Under the pieces are notes generated by a model, which had not been told where the DNA came from, did no database searches, and saw only the letters and a program-made list of their open reading frames with translations. A program made the position numbers and the translations under genes. From an uncultured Chloroflexia bacterium (GTDB lineage: Bacteria > Chloroflexota > Limnocylindria > Limnocylindrales > CSP1-4), in contig CAVVNQ010000007.1 of the NCBI GenBank assembly GCA_963749705.1, positions 64,001 through 128,000 on the forward strand: a stretch of 64,000 nt of DNA, in the 5' to 3' direction. Position 1 is the stretch's first letter; every line of letters starts with the position of its first letter. Positions 1,398 to 60,527 of this stretch are shown here, piece after piece.

Positions 1398-2365
1398 GCC
1401 TCGCGCCCGGGCGCACCGTCGTCAGCGTCCTCGAACTCGCCCGGCTCGACGGGACCGCCGGGCGTGACCTGGGCCGCCGGCGCGCTGCGGAGCGTGATGA
1501 TCCCGCCCACCGCGATCGTCGCCGCCCCGGCCACCGCGCGCGCGATGATCGCCTCGCCGAAGATGACGGCGCCCGCGGTGAACGACCACACCAGCGAGAG
1601 GTATCCCAGCGGGGCGAGATCGCTCGCCCGGCCGCGCTGGTAGGCGGCGACCAGCAGCCGGTGGCCAAGCAGCGCAGACAGGCCGACCACGCCGGTCCCG
1701 ATCCACTCCAGGGGCGTCGGCGACGTCGGCGTCGGCACCCCGACCTCGAGCACCAGCGCGGCCACCAGCCCGACCAGCCCGGAGAGGAACACCGTCACCT
1801 CGGCCGGCTCGTCGCTCAGCGAACGGGTGAGCAGGCTGAACAGGGCATAGGCCAATGCCGTTCCCAGCGGCACCAGCATTGCGAGCTTGAGCTCCGCCGC
1901 ATCGAGCCCGACCAGGATCACCACGCCCGTGAAGCCGATGATCGCGCCCAGCCCCGCAGCGCGGCTGACCCGCTCGCCGAGCAGCGGACCCGCGAGCAGG
2001 ACCACGATCAGGGGTGTCGTGTTTCCGAGGGCGCTGACCTCGGCGATCGGCAGCAGCGACAGGGCGAGGAAGTAGGTCGCGGTCGCGGCGAACATCGCCA
2101 GCCCACGGGCGAGCTGGGTCCACGGCCGCCTGGTCGCGAGCAGCCGGCCCGGATGCCGGCCGCCGGCGATCAGCGCGAACGCCACGAGGTAGGAGACGTG
2201 CCGGCCGAACACGACGTGCACCACGGGCTGCTGCCCGACGAGCGTCTTGGTCATCGAGTCCGTCGCGACGAACACGATCCCGGCGAGCATGAAGATGAGC
2301 GCGCCGCGGCGGGCCGTGGACAGGCCCGCGAAGCGAGCCGCGACCGGGTGGGTGGATGCGGTCAC
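1391..2365 (-). CDS. DMT/EamA family transporter
   Basis: About 10 TM helices with duplicated EamA pattern (LLGERVS, IFGEAI); GTG start at 2365 just after the upstream stop. Confidence 0.85.
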   Translation of the reverse strand: MTASTHPVAARFAGLSTARRGALIFMLAGIVFVATDSMTKTLVGQQPVVHVVFGRHVSYLVAFALIAGGRHPGRLLATRRPWTQLARGLAMFAATATYFLALSLLPIAEVSALGNTTPLIVVLLAGPLLGERVSRAAGLGAIIGFTGVVILVGLDAAELKLAMLVPLGTALAYALFSLLTRSLSDEPAEVTVFLSGLVGLVAALVLEVGVPTPTSPTPLEWIGTGVVGLSALLGHRLLVAAYQRGRASDLAPLGYLSLVWSFTAGAVIFGEAIIARAVAGAATIAVGGIITLRSAPAAQVTPGGPVEPGEFEDADDGAPGREAW

Positions 2366-2373
2366 CGGGTCGG

Positions 2374-3705
2374 TCAGTCGGGCAGGATGTCGGTCAGGTT
2401 CCCCATCGCGTCGAACCCGATCGGAGCCGGCGGGCGCTCCACCCGGCATCGCCCGGTGGCGAGCAGCTCGGGCAGGAGTCCCTCGGACGCGTAGAACCAC
2501 TCGAGGTGCTTCGTGTCCCGCAGCCGCACGATGCGCGCCGTGTCCGCGGACACCTTGAGGCAGCACGCGATCGCGGCGTCAAGCGCGTCCCGGTCCGTGT
2601 CCACCGTGAGCGCCACCCGCGCGCCCTCGGGGGTCTTGGCCGTGATGCAGTTCATGTAGGTCTTGGCCACGTCCATCGCGTCGGCCGCCCGCCCGAGGAC
2701 CACGTCGGCCATGCCGATCCCGACCGCGTTGCCCTCGGTGGCCTCGGTCAGGCCGCGGACGATGATCCGCTGGATGAGCGGGTCCCTGCCGGTGGGCCCG
2801 GTGTAGTAGCGTCCGACGACGTTGGAGTCCATCCCCAGCCCGCTGATGTCCTTGCCGATCTGGTCCAGGATCAGGACGTCGAGCGTGCTGAGCGGCAGCC
2901 GGGCGAGGTGCGCATCCGCCTCCTCCAGCAGCGCCCGCTCGCGCTGGTGCATCTCCGCGGCCGGGACGGCCTCGATCCGGCGAAGACGGGCATAGCCGTT
3001 CTCGATCAGGGCCAGGCCGAACGGGATCGGCGCCCTGGCAAGGGTGTGCTCGGCGACGGCGGGGATGAGCTCCGCGAAGGTGGAGAAGCCCTCGCGGTGG
3101 AAGGTGTCGGCACCGCGCTGCTTGCCGAGACCGATCGCGATCATCTTGAGCAGCCCGCTCTCGATCGGTCCCGAGAAGTCGGTGTGCGGCTTCACCCGGT
3201 TGACGGGGATGATGACGTCGGCGCCGGTCAGCGCCAGGCGATCAACGAACACGGGCACGCCCCGGACCTCGCCGATCTCCACCGTGTCCATGCTCGAGCG
3301 GATCTCACACCCGATGGTGTCCTCGCGGATCCCCAGCGAGGCGAGCACCGCCGCCTGGCCGTCCGCGGTCGCGCCGCCGTGACTGCCCATCGCGGGCACG
3401 GCGAACACCTCGAGCCCCGAGGCGCGGAGCGCCGCGACCGTCGCACGGGCGACCTCGGCGATCCGGTCGATGCCCCGGCTGCCCAGCGCCACGCACGCCC
3501 GGCCCCCCGTCGGCAGCCGGTCGCGCACCGGCGCGAGAGCGTCGGCCACGGCCGAATCGATGTCACCGACCTCGGTCCGGTCCATCTCGTGCCGGACCAG
3601 GGCCCACGAGGGGAGCGCCTCGTGGCGGAACACGTCAAGCCACGAGCCGGGCGCACGCGCCCCGATCTCGGGGACCGGCGGATCGTCGTCCCGGCGGATC
3701 GTCAT
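2374..3705 (-). CDS. LarA-like (lactate racemase N-terminal/DUF2088-type) protein, putative sugar-acid epimerase
   Basis: GSRGI...PAMGSHGGATADGQ, NRVKPHTDF, SGLLKMIAIGLGK motifs; RBS GAGGAAGG before ATG 3705. Confidence 0.7.
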   Translation of the reverse strand: MTIRRDDDPPVPEIGARAPGSWLDVFRHEALPSWALVRHEMDRTEVGDIDSAVADALAPVRDRLPTGGRACVALGSRGIDRIAEVARATVAALRASGLEVFAVPAMGSHGGATADGQAAVLASLGIREDTIGCEIRSSMDTVEIGEVRGVPVFVDRLALTGADVIIPVNRVKPHTDFSGPIESGLLKMIAIGLGKQRGADTFHREGFSTFAELIPAVAEHTLARAPIPFGLALIENGYARLRRIEAVPAAEMHQRERALLEEADAHLARLPLSTLDVLILDQIGKDISGLGMDSNVVGRYYTGPTGRDPLIQRIIVRGLTEATEGNAVGIGMADVVLGRAADAMDVAKTYMNCITAKTPEGARVALTVDTDRDALDAAIACCLKVSADTARIVRLRDTKHLEWFYASEGLLPELLATGRCRVERPPAPIGFDAMGNLTDILPD

Positions 3706-52140: not shown

Positions 52141-54795
52141 TCAGCGCGTCTCCGTGGCCTGGGACACCGCAGAGCCCATCCCGAGGACAGAGCTCAGGTC
52201 GCGCCTGCCCGCGATGCCGAGCTTTCCGTAGACCGCGCCAAGGTGGTTGTCCACCGTGCGAACGGAGATGTCCAAACGACGCCCGATCTCGCTCGACGAC
52301 TGCCGGCCGGCGGCGAGCAGCGCGATCTCGAGCTCGCGCGGCGTCAGCGGCACGGTGGTCACGGTCGTGAGTGGCGGCGTCGCCACGCCGGCCAGGCTGC
52401 CGGAAAGGAAGCTCGCCCTCGCCCGGGCGATCCGCGCGAGAACCGGCTCCCCGGCGCGCAGATGCGCATCCTGCGCGTGGGCGGCTGCTTCCGCAGCGCA
52501 CAGGGTGCTGCCCATTCGTTCGAACGCCACGGAGATGCGGTCAAGCCTTGAACCGTCCCCCTCGGCGAGCGCCGCGGCATGCTGGGCCATCGTCGCCACC
52601 AGATCGCCTTCGACCGAGTCAGTGAGTGCGGCGAGACGGTCTCGCACCAGTTCGGGGTACCCGAGCCGAACGGCGTCGTGGAACGTCCAGGCCGCCCAGA
52701 CCAGGTGCGTGTCGCTCACCGCGCGATCGCCGGCGGCCAGGGCCAGGCGGGCCGCCGCGGCCGGCCCCTCATCGAGCCACGTGATCCAGACCGTCGCCCG
52801 GTCGAACTGGATCCTCGATCGCACATCACGCACCAGGTGCTGATCGACGATCTCCTGGTACAGCGCGCGTGCGTCATCGTGGCGCCCCAGCCACGAGGCA
52901 AGGACCGTCGCCACCCCGGCCTGGATGCCGCGGACCGAGAACGTGTCCCGCTCTCGTGCGACCTCGAGCGCTCCGACCACGGTCTGCAGGCCGCCGCCGA
53001 TGTTGCCGGCGAGCATCTGGCACTCGGCGAGGATCATGGCCCACATCGCCGCCACCTCGACGGCACCGGCCCCGATGGCCGCGCGCTGGGCGACATCACA
53101 TAGCGTGATCGATTGGGCAAGGCGTCCTGCGTAGGCAAGGGCCATCGCGCGGTTCATCTGCAGCATGTCCGGGGCCAGCGGCAGCTCCTCGCGCGTCTGC
53201 GGGGCGCGTTCCAGCGCGAGACGCACCTGGGTCTCCGACTCAGCCAGGCGGCCCAGCATCACGTTGGCGATGCTCGAGTACATCAGGGTATGCACGACCG
53301 TCCTGGGCCTGGCCGTTGGCCTGAGCATCAGGCGATCACCGATGGCCGCGACGCCAAGGAGGTCCCCGGCACCGGTGCGGAACAGCGCTCGCAGCGAGTC
53401 GATCTCGTCTCGCCAGTCTTCGTCGATCACGCGAGCGGCGGCCGCATCGAGGACGTCCGATGCTTCGACGGCTCGTCCGGCCCGGAAGCCGAGCAGGTCT
53501 GCGCGTGCCAGCGCGACCGTCGAGATGTCCGCGTCCGTGCGCGCGAGCGACGCGGCTCGGGCGAGGACGCGGTCGGCGTCTTCGATGCGCTGCTGGGCCG
53601 CCACGGCGCGACCCAGCGCAAGCTGCGCCGTCATGTTGTCGGGCTCGCCCGCCAACGCCGCGCGGGCGAAGCGCTCGGCAAGGGGCGCGTCGAAGACCGA
53701 GAGTGCACGTCCCGCAGCGTTGAGTGCCAGCGTCGCGGGCATGTGTCCGCCGCCCTCCAGCCGCCACAGGGCGAGCCGCAGGAGATCGTCGCGCCGCCTT
53801 GCCCCGGTCGACTCGAGGCTGTCGCCCAGCCAGCGCTTGACGTGACGCGCTCGCGTCGACGGGATCGTCGCGGCCACGGCATCGGCGTACATCGGGTGCG
53901 CGAGGCGCACGGTCTGGCGATTGCCGCTGCGGCCAATCTCCACCAGGCGGCGATCATCCAGCCGCTCGAGGGCACGAGGATCATCAAGCGCGTCGAACGC
54001 CTGCAGGTCGACCGCTCCGCCGATGGCGAGCGCTTCGACGACCTGCCGCTCGGCCGCGTCCAGCCGTCCCAGCCGGGTCTCGACCAGCTGATTGAGCCGA
54101 TCCGAGGGAGCGAGCCCTTCGAGCGCACGCCAGCCGGCGCTCGTCTGGACGAGCTTCTGGCTCTCCAGCCCGCCGAGGACGAGCTCGCGGAGGAACAGGG
54201 GATTGCCACCCGACCGTCGCCACAATGTTGACCGCGTGATCGGCTCGACGGCCCCGTCAAGCGCGACCTCGAGCAGCCGGCCGGTCTCGTCCTCCGACAA
54301 CGGATCGACCTGGACTCGCTCGAGGAGCCCGTCCTTCCAGAGCTCGGTCAGGTCCGCGGCAGCCCGGTCGCCGGGACGCCGGGTCATGATCATGAACGCA
54401 TCCGACCGGGTAACGAGACCGCGCACCAGCGCAGCGGAATGGCTGTCGAGCAGGTGCGCGTCGTCGATGCCGAGGACGAGCCGATCCCCCTTGCTGGCCG
54501 GCCGGGTCAGCTCGACCAGGAGCTCACCGAGGAGTTGACGCTCGTCGATTGTCACGACCGGCAGAGAAATGAGGTGCACGAACGCACCAAACGGGATGTC
54601 CGACGTGGCTCGCGAGGCGACGATCCAGGCCGTCGCCATGCCGCGCGCGGAGGCTCCGCCGACCAGCTCGCGGGCGAGCCGACTCTTGCCCACGCCGTCC
54701 TCGCCGACGATCTCGATCCCGCGGGCATCCTCTTGGGCCAGGAGTCTGCCGAGACGGAGCAGGGTCGAGTCGCGGCCGATGAGCGGCCACTCCAT
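52141..54795 (-). CDS. Large AAA-ATPase/LuxR (LAL/STAND-type) transcriptional regulator
   Basis: WPLIGRD, GEDGVGKS (Walker A), IDDAH (Walker B), GGNPLFL, LTPRELEIA..ISVRTVDNHL. Confidence 0.93.
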   Translation of the reverse strand: MEWPLIGRDSTLLRLGRLLAQEDARGIEIVGEDGVGKSRLARELVGGASARGMATAWIVASRATSDIPFGAFVHLISLPVVTIDERQLLGELLVELTRPASKGDRLVLGIDDAHLLDSHSAALVRGLVTRSDAFMIMTRRPGDRAAADLTELWKDGLLERVQVDPLSEDETGRLLEVALDGAVEPITRSTLWRRSGGNPLFLRELVLGGLESQKLVQTSAGWRALEGLAPSDRLNQLVETRLGRLDAAERQVVEALAIGGAVDLQAFDALDDPRALERLDDRRLVEIGRSGNRQTVRLAHPMYADAVAATIPSTRARHVKRWLGDSLESTGARRRDDLLRLALWRLEGGGHMPATLALNAAGRALSVFDAPLAERFARAALAGEPDNMTAQLALGRAVAAQQRIEDADRVLARAASLARTDADISTVALARADLLGFRAGRAVEASDVLDAAAARVIDEDWRDEIDSLRALFRTGAGDLLGVAAIGDRLMLRPTARPRTVVHTLMYSSIANVMLGRLAESETQVRLALERAPQTREELPLAPDMLQMNRAMALAYAGRLAQSITLCDVAQRAAIGAGAVEVAAMWAMILAECQMLAGNIGGGLQTVVGALEVARERDTFSVRGIQAGVATVLASWLGRHDDARALYQEIVDQHLVRDVRSRIQFDRATVWITWLDEGPAAAARLALAAGDRAVSDTHLVWAAWTFHDAVRLGYPELVRDRLAALTDSVEGDLVATMAQHAAALAEGDGSRLDRISVAFERMGSTLCAAEAAAHAQDAHLRAGEPVLARIARARASFLSGSLAGVATPPLTTVTTVPLTPRELEIALLAAGRQSSSEIGRRLDISVRTVDNHLGAVYGKLGIAGRRDLSSVLGMGSAVSQATETR

Positions 54796-54836
54796 CTCGC
54801 GATCCTAACCGACCGATTGTTCGCCGAACACCCGCG

Positions 54837-54854
54837 TGAGTAGTCCACTACTCA
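54837..54854. promoter_or_regulatory. Perfect inverted repeat TGAGTAGT-CC-ACTACTCA, putative operator of the AAA-LuxR regulator
   Basis: 8-2-8 palindrome in the divergent intergenic region. Confidence 0.7.
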
Positions 54855-54916
54855 TGACAGCCCCCGCATGACATCGCAGGGTCACTTGGACAGGCCCAAG
54901 TTCGATGGAGGTCGAG

Positions 54917-55519
54917 GTGTCGTCACGCAAGGGATTCGCCGCACTTGCGGTGCTCGTATTGGTGCTCGCCGCGTGCGGCACAAGCGCCAATCAGTCGTCG
55001 CAGGGGGCGTCCGAGGGGATCGCCGTCCACGGTCATTGGACGGTGGATGTCGTGAATCCGGATGGTCAGCTTGCCACCCACAGCGCATTCGAGAACGCCC
55101 TTGACTCTGCGGGGGCTCGTGCCCTCGGATTGATCCTCGGGCGTGGCGCCCAGGTGGTGGATCCTGGCTGGGCAATCGCCCTCGGGACAAACCCCTTGAA
55201 CCCGGATTCTGCACCCTGCCTTCCGCCTGGCGGGACGCCAGACGATTGCGTGGTGGCCGAGCCCGGGATGACAGGTTTCCCCCTGCCCGTGTCCTCGTTC
55301 AACCTCCAGGTGACCAGCACCAGCGACGGGCTTGATCTGGAAGGATCCGTCATCGCCACTCGCACCGGGGCCATCGGGATCGTGAAGACGTTGGTCGTTC
55401 TCAGCGATGGAGGGACATACCTCTTCACCCTCAAGGAGGTCTTCGCCGACAGCGGGGCTCAAATCAATGTTGACGCGGGCCAGAGCATCGAGGTCACCGT
55501 GTCGCTGACCTTCTCGTAG
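54917..55519 (+). CDS. Lipoprotein, putative filament/pilin-like beta-sandwich subunit
   Basis: Lipobox LAAC; GGAGG before GTG 54917 (ATG 54905 is an alternative start); ASEGIAVHGHWTVDVVNP strand; ends IEVTVSLTFS; function inferred. Confidence 0.7.
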   Translation: MSSRKGFAALAVLVLVLAACGTSANQSSQGASEGIAVHGHWTVDVVNPDGQLATHSAFENALDSAGARALGLILGRGAQVVDPGWAIALGTNPLNPDSAPCLPPGGTPDDCVVAEPGMTGFPLPVSSFNLQVTSTSDGLDLEGSVIATRTGAIGIVKTLVVLSDGGTYLFTLKEVFADSGAQINVDAGQSIEVTVSLTFS

Positions 55520-55556
55520 GGTGTCTGCTGAAGAGGTCGCGGGTCACTGACGAGCC

Positions 55557-58500
55557 GTGGGTACCCGGCATCGCGCAGCTGCGTGGACCCGCCGCCGTGC
55601 GGGTCTGCCTCTCGCCGCAGTGATCCTTGCGTCGGGGATGAGCGGCACGATCCTTCTCCCGGCCGTGGATGCCTCGTCGCCAAACGACACCACCTCCACG
55701 ACGGGCGTCCACGTGGTTCAGATCCCGGGTCTCTTCGGTGGCTCCGCAAACGCGATCAACGCCGACGGTTGGGTGGTGGGTGCCGCGCGCTTCAGCACCG
55801 CCCCCATGAATCAGGCATTCCTCTGGAAGGCGAAAGGCTCGCCGATTCCGCTGATCGATCCCGAGCCAGGGGTCGTCTTCGACAGCGGTGCCAACGACAT
55901 CAACGACGGCGGCGAGGTCGTCGGATGGTTCGACAATGCTGTGACCAATGCCAAGGGCGCGTTCCGTTGGAGCGGCTCGGGACCGTACGAAGACCTGGGC
56001 ATCGTGCCGGGCACCATCGCGGGCGGGAACATCGAGGCGAAGGCGATCGACAACGGCGGCAACGTCGTTGGCTGGTACGTCGCCGCTCCGGGAGCGTGTG
56101 GTCTGTCCTCGGGCGCCACAGGCGGGACATGCAGCTTCTATGCGCGCCAGGGTGACACGGGAGCCTCCATCGGCAGCATCGGCGTGGTCGATGACGGCAC
56201 CTCCACCGGAGCGAAGTTCCTTGCCGCGGACGTTGCGCTGTGGGACGGCGTGGACGGCGTCGTCACGGGAACAGCCGGCGGCCATGGCTACAGCTGGGTT
56301 GGATTCGATCTCCGTTCGAATGCCTTCGAACCGTTCACCGATGCCGGGATTGTCAATGCGGTGAGCAACAGCCTCGACTACGCCGGCAGCGTGGCGACGG
56401 TCGATGGGACCCGCGCCGCCGTCTGGTCCGGTGCCAACAGCGCCCCGACCGCCGTCCTGCCGACCCTCGGCGGTTCGTTCAGCCAGGCGAACGCGATCAA
56501 CGGATCTGGAGCGGTGGTCGGGTCGAGTGAGACCGCGAGTGGTGAGACGCATGCGTTCCTCTGGACACCCACCGACGGCATGCAGGACCTCGGGACGCTT
56601 GGCGGCATCTCGAGCACGGCGTTCGACATCAATGACGCCGGCCTGATCGTCGGCCAGGCAACATCCGCGGGCTCGACGTTGCAGCACGCCGTGGTGTGGG
56701 ATGTGGCGGGAACCTTCCACCCGGACTTCCCACCCGAGATCGATCCGATCTCGCCCAAGACGGTCGCCCCGGGGGAGGGGCTCACCATCACGCCGGCCAT
56801 CACCGATCCCGAAGCAGACCCCTTCTCGGTCGTCTGGTCCGATCTGCCTGCCGGCGCCACCCAGGTCGGCAACAGCCTCGAATGGACGCCGACCGATGCC
56901 GACATCGGGACGTACCAGGTCACGGTCACCGCCGTCGAGGATGGGGACGCTGCGGTCTTCACCTCGCTGACGGTGGCCATCAATGTCAGTGCCGGGGTAC
57001 GCCTCGATCCGATCGGGGACAAGGTCGCCACCGTGGGCGTGGAGCTCACGTTCACCGCGACCGCAACGGCTCCTGGCCCGTATTCCCTGACCTATGGGCT
57101 GGCCGGTGGCACGTTGGCACTACCTGGGCCACCCCCGGCCGGCGCCACGATCGATCCGACGACGGGTGCCTTCTCGTGGACGCCAACCCTCGATCAGGAG
57201 GGCGACCATCCGCTCGTCGTGATCGTTTCGGACCTCTTCTCCGGGTCTTCCGATTACGAGGAGTTCACCGTCGCGGTTCTCCCGGAAGGGCCGGTGAACA
57301 CTCCGCCAACGGCAGATGCCGGGATGGACCAGTCGGTGCTCGTCGGTGAGCTCGTCACCCTCGATGGATCCGCCTCAACCGACGCGGATTCCGACCCGCT
57401 CTCATACGCGTGGGTCCTCGTCTCCGCTCCCAGTGGCTCAGCTGCCGCGCTGTCGGCGAGCGACACCGCGGCGCCCAGCTTCACTCCAGATGTCGCGGGT
57501 GACTACACCGTCCAGCTGACGGTCGACGATGGGAACGGCGGGATCGATTCGGACCTGGTCGTCGTCCATGCCGCCGCGGCACCCACCGTGGTGGTCATCA
57601 CGATCAGCGAGGCGATCGGCGTGACCGACGCCGTGACCGTCCGGCCGCCCGTGGTCATCACGATCAGCGAGGCGATCGGGGTGACCGACGCCGTGACCGT
57701 CCGGCCGCCCGTGGTCATCACGATCAGCGAGGCGATCGGGGTCACCGACGCCGTGACCGTCCGGCCGCCCGTGGTCATCACGATCAGCGAGGCGATCGGC
57801 GTGACCGACGCCGTGACCGTCCGGCCGCCCGTGGTCATCACGATCAGCGAGGCGATCGGCGTGACCGACGCCGTGACCGTCCGGCCGCCCGTGGTCATCA
57901 CGATCAGCGAGGCCATCGGCGTGACCGACGCCGTGACCGTCCGGCCGCCCGTGGTCATCACGATCAGCGAGGCGATCGGCGTGACCGACGCCGTGACCGT
58001 CCGACCGCCCGTGGTCATCACGATCAGCGAGGCGATCGGCGTGACCGACGCCGTGACCGTCCGACCGCCCGTGGTCATCACGATCAGCGAGGCGATCGGC
58101 GTGACCGACGCCGTGACCGTCTCGGTCCCAACCCTGACTGTCGATCTCGGCGTGCTGTATGACAAGCTCGGGAACCCGACCACCCATGTCTCGGTTGGCG
58201 ACGAGGCCACGCTGATCGGCGATGGGTTCGATCCGAACGCCGCGGTGACCGTCGAGATTCGGTCGGATCCGATCCAGCTCGGCACCACAACGGCCGACGG
58301 CACGGGTCACATCTCGGTGGTGATCACGATCCCAGCCCTGTCGGCCGGCGAGCACACCGTGGCTGCCGTCGGCATGGTTGACGGCCACCCGCACGAGGTC
58401 CAGGTACAGATCACCGTCCTCAGCCCCGCAGCGGTCGAGCTGAGCGACGGCAACCCGATTTCGGTCCCCGTCACTGAGCCCGGCGGCGACAGTGAGCCGT

Positions 58501-59228
58501 TCGACCTGACGTACACGGTCGGCGAGGTCTATCCGAACCTGGTCAGCGGTGGCCTCGGCGGTGCGGAGGTCGGGCTGTCGCTGGAGCCGGTAGGCCCCGG
58601 CTCAACGGTCCAGGCCGACTCGTGCACGACGTCGCTCGACGACGAGCTCCAGGTCACGTGCCGGTTCTCGGACGTGCCGGTCAACACATATGCAGCGGTC
58701 GCCAGCGTGGGCGGCCTCTACCTGGGCTCCGACGAGGACGTCCTCGTGATCTACGACCCGAGCCTCGGCTTCACGACCGGAGGTGGCTGGTTCAGCTGGC
58801 CCGGGACCGGGGACCGCACCACCTTCGGATACACCATGAAGTACAACAAGAAGGGCACAAACCTGAAGGGCAGCCTTCTCCTCATTCGGCACCTCCCGGA
58901 CGGCACCGCCTATCGGCTGAAGTCGAACGCGCTGGATGGGCTCGCGCTGTCCGATCCATCCGCCGCGTTCGGCTGGGCGACGTTCAGCGGCAAGGCCACG
59001 TACCAGGCGCCTGGCTGGCCCGCACCTGCGGGCAACTTCCACTTCGTTGTCTACGCCGAGGACAACGACACACCCGGCGCAGGTGTGGATCGTTTCTGGA
59101 TCAGCGTGACCGATGGCGATGGCAACCCGACCGATCTCTCGATGACCGGTCCTGCGGTCGACGAGGCCGCGCTCCTGGGTGGCGGCGACGTCGCGGTTCC
59201 CCACGGAACGCATCGTGGGCGCAAGTGA
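55557..59228 (+). CDS. Large secreted adhesin-like protein: HAF-repeat propeller, two Ig/cadherin-like domains, PKD-like domain, nine 20-aa repeats, further Ig-like and C-terminal beta domains
   Basis: Signal peptide; HAFLWTPTDGMQDLGTLGG; GATIDPTTGAFSWTPT; NTPPTADAGMDQ; GFTTGGGWF C-terminal domain. Confidence 0.85.
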   Translation: MGTRHRAAAWTRRRAGLPLAAVILASGMSGTILLPAVDASSPNDTTSTTGVHVVQIPGLFGGSANAINADGWVVGAARFSTAPMNQAFLWKAKGSPIPLIDPEPGVVFDSGANDINDGGEVVGWFDNAVTNAKGAFRWSGSGPYEDLGIVPGTIAGGNIEAKAIDNGGNVVGWYVAAPGACGLSSGATGGTCSFYARQGDTGASIGSIGVVDDGTSTGAKFLAADVALWDGVDGVVTGTAGGHGYSWVGFDLRSNAFEPFTDAGIVNAVSNSLDYAGSVATVDGTRAAVWSGANSAPTAVLPTLGGSFSQANAINGSGAVVGSSETASGETHAFLWTPTDGMQDLGTLGGISSTAFDINDAGLIVGQATSAGSTLQHAVVWDVAGTFHPDFPPEIDPISPKTVAPGEGLTITPAITDPEADPFSVVWSDLPAGATQVGNSLEWTPTDADIGTYQVTVTAVEDGDAAVFTSLTVAINVSAGVRLDPIGDKVATVGVELTFTATATAPGPYSLTYGLAGGTLALPGPPPAGATIDPTTGAFSWTPTLDQEGDHPLVVIVSDLFSGSSDYEEFTVAVLPEGPVNTPPTADAGMDQSVLVGELVTLDGSASTDADSDPLSYAWVLVSAPSGSAAALSASDTAAPSFTPDVAGDYTVQLTVDDGNGGIDSDLVVVHAAAAPTVVVITISEAIGVTDAVTVRPPVVITISEAIGVTDAVTVRPPVVITISEAIGVTDAVTVRPPVVITISEAIGVTDAVTVRPPVVITISEAIGVTDAVTVRPPVVITISEAIGVTDAVTVRPPVVITISEAIGVTDAVTVRPPVVITISEAIGVTDAVTVRPPVVITISEAIGVTDAVTVSVPTLTVDLGVLYDKLGNPTTHVSVGDEATLIGDGFDPNAAVTVEIRSDPIQLGTTTADGTGHISVVITIPALSAGEHTVAAVGMVDGHPHEVQVQITVLSPAAVELSDGNPISVPVTEPGGDSEPFDLTYTVGEVYPNLVSGGLGGAEVGLSLEPVGPGSTVQADSCTTSLDDELQVTCRFSDVPVNTYAAVASVGGLYLGSDEDVLVIYDPSLGFTTGGGWFSWPGTGDRTTFGYTMKYNKKGTNLKGSLLLIRHLPDGTAYRLKSNALDGLALSDPSAAFGWATFSGKATYQAPGWPAPAGNFHFVVYAEDNDTPGAGVDRFWISVTDGDGNPTDLSMTGPAVDEAALLGGGDVAVPHGTHRGRK
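57591..58121 (+). repeat. 60-bp coding tandem repeat x~9 (VVITISEAIGVTDAVTVRPP)
   Basis: Units align in register with the 60-nt lines; differences are synonymous only (GGC/GGG, GTG/GTC, GCG/GCC, CGG/CGA). Confidence 0.97.
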
Positions 59229-59494
59229 TGCCGGCACGGTCGTCGCCACGCCTGACGCTGCTCGCAACGATCCTGACGACGACTGCCTGTGGTGCGCCGC
59301 GAGCCACGCCGAGCGAAGCCGCCTCGCAGGACTTGCCGACCTTGACCTCCGCGCCCACGACCCTGGCAGCGGTCTCGCCAACCCCGGCACCAGTCGGCGG
59401 GCCGAGCCACGCCGGTGAGGCAACCGGCGGGAGGGGGATGGACGAGTCCGTGGGCGTGACCGACCAGGTGACCATCGTGATCAGGGATCCGTAA
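59228..59494 (+). CDS. 88-aa lipoprotein: lipobox, P/T/S/A linker, one C-terminal copy of the repeat motif (putative anchor/nucleator)
   Basis: ATG overlaps the adhesin stop (TGATG); MPARSSPRLTLLATILTTTAC...MDESVGVTDQVTIVIRDP; present only as the tail of ORF 58622..59494 in the track. Confidence 0.75.
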   Translation: MPARSSPRLTLLATILTTTACGAPRATPSEAASQDLPTLTSAPTTLAAVSPTPAPVGGPSHAGEATGGRGMDESVGVTDQVTIVIRDP

Positions 59495-59571
59495 CGACGA
59501 GGTCCCAAGCCTCGTTCCGCGGGCACCAGAAGGTGAGTGCCGCGCCCCGTTGGGCGGGCGAGGAGGTTCCC

Positions 59572-60111
59572 GTGCCGATCTTGCAGCTGGCGAAGCGCCT
59601 GCTTGTCGTCCTCGTCGCAGGTCTGGCGCTGTCGGCTTGTACGAGTGCGCCCGCCGCCCGTCCTGATGGGGGAGCATCGCAACCGGCAGGGAGCGGCACC
59701 GCGACACCCGGCACTGCATCCGGGCCCACGCCGCGCGCGGCGGCGACAGCGACGCAGCGGGCTGGCGAGTCAGCCGGTGCGAGCGTGTCCAATGGCCCGA
59801 AGTCGAGCATGTCCGGCGACTGGAGCGGCACCGTGGTCGAGAGCACGGGCTCGCAGGGGATCAGGTTCGTGCTCCTGGAGATCGCGGGGACGATCAGCGG
59901 CGATGTCCTCTACGAGCACGGCAAGGCGGACAACGGGGTGACGGGTACCTGGGACGGCGATTCGGTAACGCTCGTCTATGAGGCTCGCACCACGAAACAG
60001 ACGACGACGTACAAGGGCACGGTCTCCGACGGCTTCTTCCGCGGCACGGTCTCCAGGGAGATCGGAGGCCAGTCCGCGCCCGGCGGCACGTTCGAGGTCA
60101 GCAGGAAGTAG
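59572..60111 (+). CDS. Lipoprotein with small beta-barrel-like domain
   Basis: RBS AGGAGG before GTG 59572; lipobox LSAC; MSGDWSG...GTFEVSRK. Confidence 0.75.
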   Translation: MPILQLAKRLLVVLVAGLALSACTSAPAARPDGGASQPAGSGTATPGTASGPTPRAAATATQRAGESAGASVSNGPKSSMSGDWSGTVVESTGSQGIRFVLLEIAGTISGDVLYEHGKADNGVTGTWDGDSVTLVYEARTTKQTTTYKGTVSDGFFRGTVSREIGGQSAPGGTFEVSRK

Positions 60112-60152
60112 GCAGTCCTGCGGCAGCTATTCGGGTATGCGTCGGCGCGTGC

Positions 60153-60527
60153 TCAGCCGAAGAAGTCGGTGATCGCCTTCGTGTCGTCGGAGAACGCCCA
60201 GCGCTCGGTGACCTTGCCGTCACGGACGTGGTAGATCTCCGCCGTGCGATAGGTCAGCGAGCGGTCGCCGTGGGTCACGTGCGCCGTGCCCAGCGCGATC
60301 GCGTGATCGTCGTTGGCGACGACGTCGTGGATCTCGTAGTCGATGGTGTAGCCCTCGAAGTCGGCCATCGACCCGGCCAGCTCCCCCTTGCCGCGCCGTG
60401 GCTGCGCACGCCCGATCTCGTGCCACACGACGTCATCGGCGACCCGGCTGGCCGCCCCGTCCATGTCCCCGCTGCTCATCGCCTCGTTCATCTCGCGAAC
60501 GACCTTGGCGTTCGGGTGCTCGGCCAT
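60153..60527 (-). CDS. SnoaL/NTF2-like protein
   Basis: ADDVVWH, HDVVANDDH, YHVRDGKVTERW. Confidence 0.85.
   Translation of the reverse strand: MAEHPNAKVVREMNEAMSSGDMDGAASRVADDVVWHEIGRAQPRRGKGELAGSMADFEGYTIDYEIHDVVANDDHAIALGTAHVTHGDRSLTYRTAEIYHVRDGKVTERWAFSDDTKAITDFFG

Follow-up and report, generated by a model that had tools for sequence, protein, structure and literature searches.

A small lipoprotein gene coupled to a surface-protein gene ends in a diverged copy of the surface protein's repeat

This report concerns a small gene, P0001, in a stretch of 64,000 nucleotides (hereafter the window) from contig CAVVNQ010000007.1 of an uncultured Chloroflexia bacterium (assembly GCA_963749705.1; genome G000 in our numbering). 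The start codon of P0001 overlaps the stop codon of the gene for a large secreted surface protein, here called the adhesin, and this coupling is conserved; its product carries a lipoprotein-type signal, a linker rich in proline, threonine, serine, alanine and glycine (P/T/S/A/G) and a short C-terminal tail. The tail belongs to the family of 20-residue repeats that forms an array of nine units within the adhesin, an array that is modelled as a beta-solenoid. Comparison with a second bacterial family indicates that both the tail and the lipobox have been selectively conserved. It is quite possible, if still short of probable, that this membrane-tethered single rung docks on the adhesin solenoid, or on an accessory protein (P0159) encoded directly upstream of the adhesin, and that it would thereby hold, nucleate or cap an adhesin that has no anchor of its own.

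The small open reading frame and its product

The adhesin gene (1223 amino acids; 55557..59228, plus strand, assigned from its translation and from Pfam and NCBIfam matches) ends ...CGC AAG TGA. The ATG of the small open reading frame (ORF; 59228..59494, plus strand; 88 amino acids plus stop) starts on the A of that TGA (gtgATGccg), giving the sequence TGATG at 59228. Because its start overlaps the adhesin stop, P0001 is, to judge from position, translated in step with the gene upstream. The full translation, MPARSSPRLTLLATILTTTACGAPRATPSEAASQDLPTLTSAPTTLAAVSPTPAPVGGPSHAGEATGGRGMDESVGVTDQVTIVIRDP, divides into a signal (MPARSSPRLTLLATILTTTAC), a linker (GAPRATPSEAASQDLPTLTSAPTTLAAVSPTPAPVGGPSHAGEATGGRG) and a tail (MDESVGVTDQVTIVIRDP, followed directly by the stop), the last of which may be summarised as DESVGVTDQVTIVIRDP.

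The signal peptide with its lipobox (residues 1–21; 59228..59290, plus strand) was delimited with a lipobox regular expression and ends LTTTAC. Its n-region is positively charged (R4 and R8) and is followed by an uncharged h-region, LTLLATILTTTA. The lipobox cysteine, Cys21, is the sole cysteine of the protein and is retained in five of five full-length sequences. The lipobox itself reads TTAC in the sequences from the genus and VAAC in that of a more distant genome, G473. Position −3 of a lipobox is usually leucine; the genus sequences have threonine there. The rule applied as a regular expression, which is of PROSITE type, is matched by P0001, by P0004 and P0005, and by the G473 protein. The lipoprotein pathway is encoded in the genome of the window, with two matches over the cut-off for Lgt (PF01790) and one for LspA (PF01252).

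The linker (residues 22–70; 59291..59437, plus strand) comprises 49 residues, of which 76% are P/T/S/A/G, and has no predicted structure. The tail (residues 71–88; 59438..59491, plus strand) consists of a diverged half-unit of the adhesin repeat with a short extra strand, and ends DP. AlphaFold2, run on a five-sequence alignment, returned a helix in the signal (residues 7–18) and no other secondary structure; the mean predicted local distance difference test score (pLDDT) was 58, the last block being the highest at 72. No family was matched in Pfam (E ≤ 0.1) or NCBIfam, and the ESM Atlas gave no usable lead for P0001 (best score 0.76). The mature form, of about 67 residues, would consist of a lipid, a flexible tether some 50 residues long and 17–18 residues of C-terminal peptide. 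Peptide geometry suggests that the tether, if extended, would span very roughly 15–18 nm. The first-pass annotation of this DNA, made from the letters alone, had described an ATG coupled to the adhesin stop, a signal peptide ending TTAC, a P/T/S/A/G linker of about 50 residues and the lack of any other foldable sequence, and on all four points the present analysis agrees with it.

Evidence that P0001 is a gene

Base composition, divergence and conservation together indicate that 59228..59494 is a genuine, conserved lipoprotein gene. The GC content of the small ORF by codon position is 0.63, 0.68 and 0.83; third-position GC is 0.84 in the adhesin gene and 0.83 in the next gene, and 0.64 and 0.69 in the other two frames of the small-ORF stretch. 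Relative to its ortholog in G009, a genome of the same genus, P0001 shows 16 synonymous and 17 non-synonymous differences, and the insertions and deletions (indels) are in frame. The ratio of non-synonymous to synonymous rates (dN/dS) is 0.405 and the synonymous excess has a binomial P of 0.016; for the same pair of genomes dN/dS is 0.17 in the C-terminal part of the adhesin and 0.35 in the third gene (P0003). P0001 is also predicted by gene callers in three other public sources, and three further variants, 74–80% identical, are present in a collection of 5.8 billion proteins.

An explanation of the small ORF as no gene at all, only a frame that happens to be open in the GC-rich DNA downstream of the adhesin gene, is highly improbable, and we reject it: the same frame is indeed open for 202 codons upstream within the adhesin gene (ORF 58622..59494), as is often so in DNA of 68% GC (the value for the host genome), but the third-position signal is specific to the small-ORF frame, the comparison with G009 gives a synonymous excess and in-frame indels, and the signal peptide, the single cysteine, the tail and the coupling to the adhesin stop are kept in another family (G473). 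Fusion of the small ORF to the adhesin by a frameshift, considered since the relative frame of the two does not change among the three genomes, likewise found no support; because the lipoprotein signal is conserved, P0001 is read as a separate protein. Contigs from four DNA runs of three studies, compared over 58600..60150, have indels listed at 59003/59008 and 59520/59523 only; none falls within the small ORF where it is covered, the cover being patchy.

Among 41 related genomes a single one, G009, has a full-length relative (83% identity, E 6e-37), and there the gene order is the same: adhesin, small gene, third lipoprotein. A survey of the genus returned a full-length match in two of 70 species genomes, with a third, weak hit that extends over signal and linker only. 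The first-pass annotation had made its proposal depend on conservation of the ORF, and this is borne out by the orthologs in G009 and G473. Small genes of this sort are easily overlooked: the G473 gene starts with TTG and was not returned by a profile search that included its own sequence. That search, of the 5.8-billion-protein collection outside its 'longer' and 'shorter' length classes and so bearing on unfused forms only, yielded no new members, and a scan of genome contigs with the small-protein alignment gave no match. The same alignment run against metagenomes gave three loci, which match linker residues 47–70 only (63% identity) and were set aside as compositional matches.

Two incidental observations may be recorded. 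The small genes of the window and of G009 share identical stretches of 53 and 48 bases (59248..59300 and 59351..59398), synonymous sites included; these are not unusual, since identical runs of 30–57 bases occur in the adhesin and third genes also, and identity over the region is 86%. Further, a relative of P0001 on a 90-kb contig (P0006, 50 amino acids) is recorded from an internal methionine (MPSAPTT…); its start has probably been wrongly called, or else its signal region is different.

The tail is a member of the adhesin's repeat family

A six-frame translation of the whole assembly (3.6 Mb, 22 contigs, 7,191,608 residues) contains the pattern GVTD.VT ten times: nine times in the units of the adhesin and once in the tail. 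Independently of the adhesin, a matrix for half a unit (from the conserved E to position +10) was built from 403 distinct units of other proteins, the adhesin and its orthologs being left out. The tail (ESVGVTDQVTI) scores 20.0 bits and is the top site in the genome outside the adhesin; the next scores 16.3. Because the pattern is unique to adhesin and tail, and because of this top score, we regard the tail as a true, if diverged, member of the repeat family; by these sequence measures its resemblance to the repeat is more than chance.

The part of the unit to which the tail corresponds is the second half, E-x-[IV]-G-V-x-D-x-V-x-[VI]. The tail had been put forward as one repeat unit, and of that claim the membership in the family stands, while the extent does not: it comprises a second half-unit and a short extra strand only. 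The residues that precede its E are TGGRGMD in the window and SPAGGIG in G473; the second strand extends as IVIRDP, with VIRDP and the stop closing the protein. With a copy number of one, P0001 contains no tandem repetition of period 20. The tails of G009 and G473 fall below the 15-bit cut-off of the strict matrix, having H and F at rare positions, though both retain the E, the G-V, the D and the V-T-I. Three pairs of adhesin and tail are available for comparison at unit position +5, and they read T/T, T/T and A/G.

The adhesin and its repeat array

From its N terminus the adhesin consists of a signal, HAF repeats (TIGR02913, E 3e-27), immunoglobulin-like (Ig-like) domains of the He_PIG and PKD types, the nine repeat units, a further Ig-like stretch and a C-terminal domain. 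This last resembles post-COAP-1, with a score against NF041523 of 31.6 bits, below the cut-off of 40; it is common to 22 loci of many phyla at 41–56% identity, and a PDB sequence search with the C-terminal part gave no match. The first-pass annotation had seen no LPXTG, transmembrane or S-layer homology (SLH) anchor in this protein, and nor did we: no LPXTG-like motif is present, no SLH or other anchor domain was found with Pfam or NCBIfam, and the only hydrophobic segments are the N-terminal signal and the V/I-rich strands of the repeats, with none at the C terminus.

The array (VVITISEAIGVTDAVTVRPP as unit; 57591..58121, plus strand) was reported by TRF as a tandem repeat of period 60 with 8.9 copies and 98% matches. 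The number of units differs among orthologs: nine in G000, at least seven in G009, six in P0025 and two in G473. In the AlphaFold2 model of the array, computed from the single sequence, pLDDT by block is 73–83 over most of the length and 58–65 in the last units, and each unit contributes two strands, one of 12 residues (VVITISEAIGVT) and one of three (VTV). When the model was compared with 48,161 PDB representatives the top match was 3p4g_A, a Ca2+-dependent beta-helical antifreeze protein (Z 16.2, root-mean-square deviation (rmsd) 3.9, 201 residues), followed by the curli subunit CsgA (8c50_A; Z 13.6, rmsd 10.5) and then by many parallel beta-helices with Z of 11–13. The array is thus predicted to be a beta-solenoid stalk, its length variable between orthologs; in such a modelled structure the open ends can accept a further rung.

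The repeat is widespread in sequence collections. A search of 1.84 billion cluster representatives with the array returned 1,925 matches at E ≤ 0.001, 669 at E ≤ 1e-10 and 60 at E ≤ 1e-30. Spacing between units is exactly 20 residues in 258 of 289 cases (153 proteins). The consensus from 403 units is PPVxIxV[ST]E[AST]IGV[TS]DA[VP]xVxPP, in which the E and D were fixed by the extraction pattern, so that their conservation is not independent evidence; the repeat occurs in large proteins of many architectures (P0009–P0158). None of the five repeat arrays scanned against Pfam matched above thresholds, and the adhesin's array is unmatched in NCBIfam. A PDB sequence search with the array gave designed helical repeats at E of about 1e-4, taken as artefacts, and a segment of IgA1 protease at 5e-4.

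Similar repeats were seen in two further places. P0010 shows a repeat of the SDSVGITDTIS type. A 326-amino-acid protein on contig G128:C14 (L016/L029; about 242089..242754, minus strand) has around 14 repeats of approximately 19–20 residues of the RTIAEAVATSDAWTRxGTFT type; the adjoining ORF resembles a phage head–tail connector protein, and the repeat may be a phage-borne cousin of the 20-residue unit.

Comparison with a second lineage

G473, a genome from a different family, came to light when the repeat array was searched against 401 members of the class. Its adhesin ortholog is 64–66% identical over the full length, with 68% identity in the C-terminal 368 residues, and carries two repeat units, TITISEGIGVADQVTVAPA and VQISLSEGIGVADGVDV. 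The TGA of this gene is overlapped by the TTG start of a small gene of 81 codons (cattgagg), whose product begins MRRRRLAIVVFAVLSVVVAACGADG…, continues with a P/S/A-rich linker and closes with the tail GGIGESFGVGDRVTITIIDPD; the h-region of its signal is MRRRRLAIVVFAVLSVVVAAC. Behind the small gene come a hairpin and, on the opposite strand, a gene for tRNA-Met. The junction between adhesin and small gene is TGATG in the window, TGATCATG in G009 and TTGA in G473: in three of three genomes with a HAF-type, repeat-bearing adhesin the start and stop codons overlap or lie 2 nt apart.

Between the window and G473 the three parts of the small protein have diverged to different degrees. In the signal four of 20 residues are identical, with the ACGA of the lipobox region retained. 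In the linker, where composition is biased, 12 of 41 are identical with ten gapped columns; the G473 linker (42 amino acids, 86% P/T/S/A/G) is similar to that of the window in length and composition. In the tail 11 of 18 residues are identical, and five of these 11 are specified by different codons, from which it follows that the constraint acts on the protein. We conclude from these alignments that tail and lipobox are selectively conserved across two families. The expectation of the first-pass annotation that conservation would be limited to the lipobox and the C-terminal motif holds against G473, in which ACGA and 11 of the 18 tail residues are kept; the pattern is not visible among close relatives.

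The distribution of the gene was examined in two further ways. A degenerate DNA pattern for the tail was found in one of the 176 genomes of G473's family, and controls with the reversed pattern gave no hits. The C-terminal domain of the adhesin, scanned for in 185,579 species genomes, was located at 23 loci from many phyla, and only one of these (L033, which is G473) has both repeat units and a downstream tail lipoprotein. At the other 22 of 22 loci neither a repeat unit (by regular expression) nor a downstream tail lipoprotein was detected, and the same is true of G082. On this comparison the tail gene travels with the repeat-carrying HAF-type adhesin, in two lineages and not in many independent events. 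As a separate observation, the cassette is rare and patchy (two of 70 genomes in the genus, one of 176 in G473's family), yet the adhesins are 64–68% identical between the families; the combination suggests that the cassette has been horizontally transferred or else widely lost.

The accessory protein P0159

The first-pass annotation overlooked a second candidate anchor or partner: P0159, a protein of 204 amino acids encoded directly upstream of the adhesin (54905..55519, plus strand), which in the window genome is a lipoprotein (…VLVLAAC|G). P0159 is 98% identical between G000 and G009, and a homolog lies directly upstream of the G473 adhesin. Searches were made in two sets of 401 genomes, one from the class and the other from the phylum. 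In seven of seven genomes a member of the family (E ≤ 1e-10; four weaker matches, with E of 6e-5 to 9e-4, were left out) immediately precedes the gene for a protein that bears the 20-residue repeat, and these proteins represent at least four architectures; for G009 the adjacency is taken from spacing. This constancy of neighbourhood across architectures points to a function specific to the repeat. The link between the P0159 family and repeat proteins is new here.

The loci concerned include L033 (2246..2830), L059 (1501..2190, minus strand), L060 (213..848, minus strand), L071 (2799..3542) and L070 (about 1730..3293). The neighbour of the P0159 homolog in G355 consists of a PD40 propeller, Ig domains and four units; that in G591 has four diverged units followed by Ig-like domains; that in G405 has a signal peptide and then the repeat, and leaves the contig after the first partial unit; and G694 has two tandem P0159-like genes followed by a variant RFDDAxxVxD repeat. 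In a large collection 114 relatives of P0159 were found, all annotated as 'hypothetical protein' at most; none has a Pfam domain, and three of the 114 have a lipobox-like signal. The family has no Pfam, NCBIfam or PDB sequence match.

It was also seen that 87 of the 114 members share a strand at the mature N terminus, [DE]GIAVxGxWKVTV (about residues 37–50 of P0159). By eye it resembles the repeat half-unit (SEGIAVHGHWTV compared with SEAIGVTDAVTV), a likeness that could be chance among beta strands.

Possible roles of the tail

If P0001 is processed as its signal suggests, cleavage of the signal and lipidation of Cys21 would place it at the membrane. The tail would then join, as an extra rung or strand (beta-augmentation), either the adhesin solenoid or P0159. 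Docked in this manner it would couple the adhesin, which is without an anchor of its own, to the membrane; alternatively, it would nucleate or cap the solenoid as the adhesin leaves the membrane. The first-pass annotation had suggested that P0001 may supply cell attachment indirectly, and its interpretation finds partial support here. A broader proposal, that the locus encodes a minimal surface-display system in which a lipid-anchored tether stacks one rung on the adhesin solenoid and works with the P0159-like family, is rather doubtful; no such system is known to have been described.

Should docking on the solenoid occur, no smaller version than P0001 would be known of a recurring design in which a minor protein, bound to the cell, bears a copy of a strand of its partner. 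The case would also show how an adhesin can remain on the cell with no anchor of its own and, more generally, how large surface proteins may be held without a sortase, SLH or transmembrane anchor. Two unannotated families are in any case exposed by the analysis: the 20-residue E/D repeat, and the secreted P0159 family of approximately 200 residues.

A number of observations weigh against a docked tail. Of the unit it lacks both the PP turn and the strand V-x-I-x-V-[ST] that comes first, ahead of the E. The solenoid model, with pLDDT of about 80, comes from a single sequence, and the rest of the 550-residue model lies below 50; moreover, folded domains flank the array on both sides and may already cap the ends of the solenoid. 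Close relatives (74–84% identity) conserve linker and tail to the same degree, with 14 of 51 columns variable in the former and six of 19 in the latter. Conservation confined to the tail thus rests on one distant genome, G473, and the comparative base as a whole is three genomes in two lineages with three metagenomic proteins. P0159, as a lipoprotein in the window genome, could be the real anchor. Finally, in the DNA examined the cassettes of G355, G591 and G694 contain no tail lipoprotein, which implies that the tail protein is not generally needed for repeats of this type.

In the first alternative the tail would be no lasting anchor but a cap or folding nucleator whose action is transient: from its place at the membrane it would template or shield the aggregation-prone repeats during emergence of the adhesin and then release them. 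The sequence and model evidence for docking serves this explanation equally; translational coupling would see both proteins made together, and the short stalk of the G473 adhesin, with its two units, might need a template. There are also precedents in TapA (PMC10151520), CsgB (PMC10192328) and the L5 hairpin of autotransporters (PMC5895577). Other proteins with the same repeat, however, manage without a tail lipoprotein, and we consider transient action unlikely.

A second alternative sees in the tail a leftover of evolution: a repeat unit would have been copied to the 3′ end of a neighbouring gene for a small lipoprotein, and would make no contact with the adhesin. The tail would then have an unrelated role or no specific one, for instance attachment to whichever wall component or cation the repeats bind. 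The narrow and patchy distribution described above would suit such an origin, as would a dN/dS of 0.41, which is merely moderate, and the conserved E and D (unit positions 0 and +6) could form a cation site like that of the Ca2+-bound 3p4g. On the other side, the tail is the best-conserved part of the protein across families, and at the level of protein, not DNA; each of the three genomes retains the start–stop coupling to the adhesin; and the tail has remained distinct from the repeat in both lineages. Taking these together, we regard a leftover as improbable.

Third, the tail could be a ligand of P0159 and not of the adhesin, with P0159 either bridging membrane and adhesin or being the object of competition between adhesin and tail. 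Proteins of the P0159 family would in this case recognise repeat units, one of which P0001 would display at the membrane. The position of the P0159 family upstream of repeat proteins in all seven genomes, over at least four architectures, and the 98% identity of P0159 between G000 and G009 are in keeping with this. Gene neighbourhood alone, however, is no proof of binding, and P0159 matched neither a family nor a PDB entry; in G000 it is a lipoprotein in its own right, for which no bridge is required, and a lipobox-like signal is present in just three of the 114 family members. An exclusive role as P0159 ligand seems to us quite unlikely.

Relation to known systems

The proposed docking of the P0001 tail on the adhesin has parallels in several known surface systems. 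In the type V pili of Bacteroidota, lipoprotein anchor subunits (Mfa2/FimB) take part in donor-strand exchange: a lipoprotein holds a surface structure by exchange or complementation of beta strands, as is proposed here. Those anchors differ: they are pilins with a fold, belong to a defined family, come from diderm bacteria and mature by proteolysis; P0001 contains no FimA/Mfa-type pilin domain (no Pfam family and no predicted fold). A second parallel is with the fibrillar or 'periscope' stalk adhesins, which have stalks of variable length and are usually anchored by LPXTG and sortase or similar means. Like them, the adhesin of the window has tandem repeats that are 98% matched at the DNA level and differ in copy number between orthologs; unlike them, it has no anchor that we could find, and its stalk unit is a 20-residue rung unmatched by Pfam and NCBIfam where scanned.

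Closer in design is TapA of Bacillus subtilis. According to the account in PMC10151520, the N terminus of TapA is donated to TasA by strand complementation, and TapA co-localises with the membrane. Both cases involve a minor protein of the same gene cluster, one end of which imitates a strand belonging to the major extracellular partner, and P0001 fits the terminal-peptide-mimic design of TapA; this is a likeness of design, not membership. As described there, TapA has an Ig-like fold of its own, donates its N terminus, and has a partner, TasA, that polymerises. P0001, in contrast, is without a fold, bears its motif at the C terminus and would be lipid-anchored, and its partner would be the internal array of one large multidomain protein. 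Neither homology to TapA nor a folded domain was detected in P0001, with no Pfam and no NCBIfam family and an AlphaFold2 model that contains the signal helix only.

Curli offer a comparable case. CsgB, as presented in PMC10192328, is held at the cell and nucleates CsgA solenoids at the cell surface: a cell-bound minor component with the repeat type of the major one uses a matching beta-solenoid surface both to nucleate and to tether. In that account CsgB contains about five complete repeats, is secured by the outer-membrane pore complex (CsgF/CsgG) and has a partner, CsgA, that forms amyloid fibres, whereas P0001 would carry a single incomplete unit on its lipid tether and the solenoid is a stalk within a protein of 1223 residues. 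The array model resembles a curli subunit loosely (8c50_A, with the Z of 13.6 and rmsd of 10.5 given above), and no curlin repeat was found in P0001 (no Pfam family at E ≤ 0.1).

For autotransporters, the L5 hairpin of the barrel has been proposed in PMC5895577 to template the beta-helix by strand augmentation; it is likewise a membrane-held beta element put forward as nucleator of a beta-helix or solenoid. The case differs in that hairpin and beta-helix are one polypeptide, the hairpin being placed in a barrel of the outer membrane, and, as stated in that source, strand propensity and not sequence is what matters, whereas in the P0001 tail a sequence motif is conserved. P0001 belongs to none of the TapA/TasA, curli, L5 hairpin or type V pilus systems, and recalls their design. 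Within one library, the words searched and the results listed, no published system of P0001's design was found; for the HAF repeat and post-COAP-1 a single paper came up, on the comparative genomics of Agrobacterium.

Other features of the locus

A hairpin (ACGAGGUC…GCCUCGU; 59496..59516, plus strand) directly follows the stop of P0001 and is present in G009 also. It has 6–8 base pairs; in the G009 copy, at about 1770..1792 of L002, the upper stem and loop are altered. With z = −0.61 the 91-nt stretch has an ordinary folding energy, and no run of T comes after the hairpin. A contig of run X3 shows a similar hairpin in its loose end at 59493. No sigma-70-like promoter was found by a scan of 54700..60400.

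The third gene of the operon encodes another lipoprotein, P0003 (59572..60111, plus strand), which begins MPILQLAKRLLVVLVAGLALSAC… and consists of a P/T/S/A/G linker and a beta-rich domain of approximately 100 amino acids of no known family; the ESM Atlas returned unnamed clusters for the domain (best score 0.91) and no usable lead. The start is probably the GTG at 59572, which lies 5 nt after GAGGAGG, the start at 59533 in the ORF list being too early. An ortholog with 81% identity is present in G009, and tblastn gave no match to P0003 in the G473 locus L033.

Divergent from the cassette, and upstream of it, lies a gene for a large ATPase/LuxR-family regulator of 884 amino acids (52141..54795, minus strand) with Pfam domains GerE, AAA_16 and AAA_22. 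A divergent regulator stands in this position in both lineages; that of G473 (L033 1003..2151, minus strand) looks, by eye, like a transcriptional activator with a P-loop motif.

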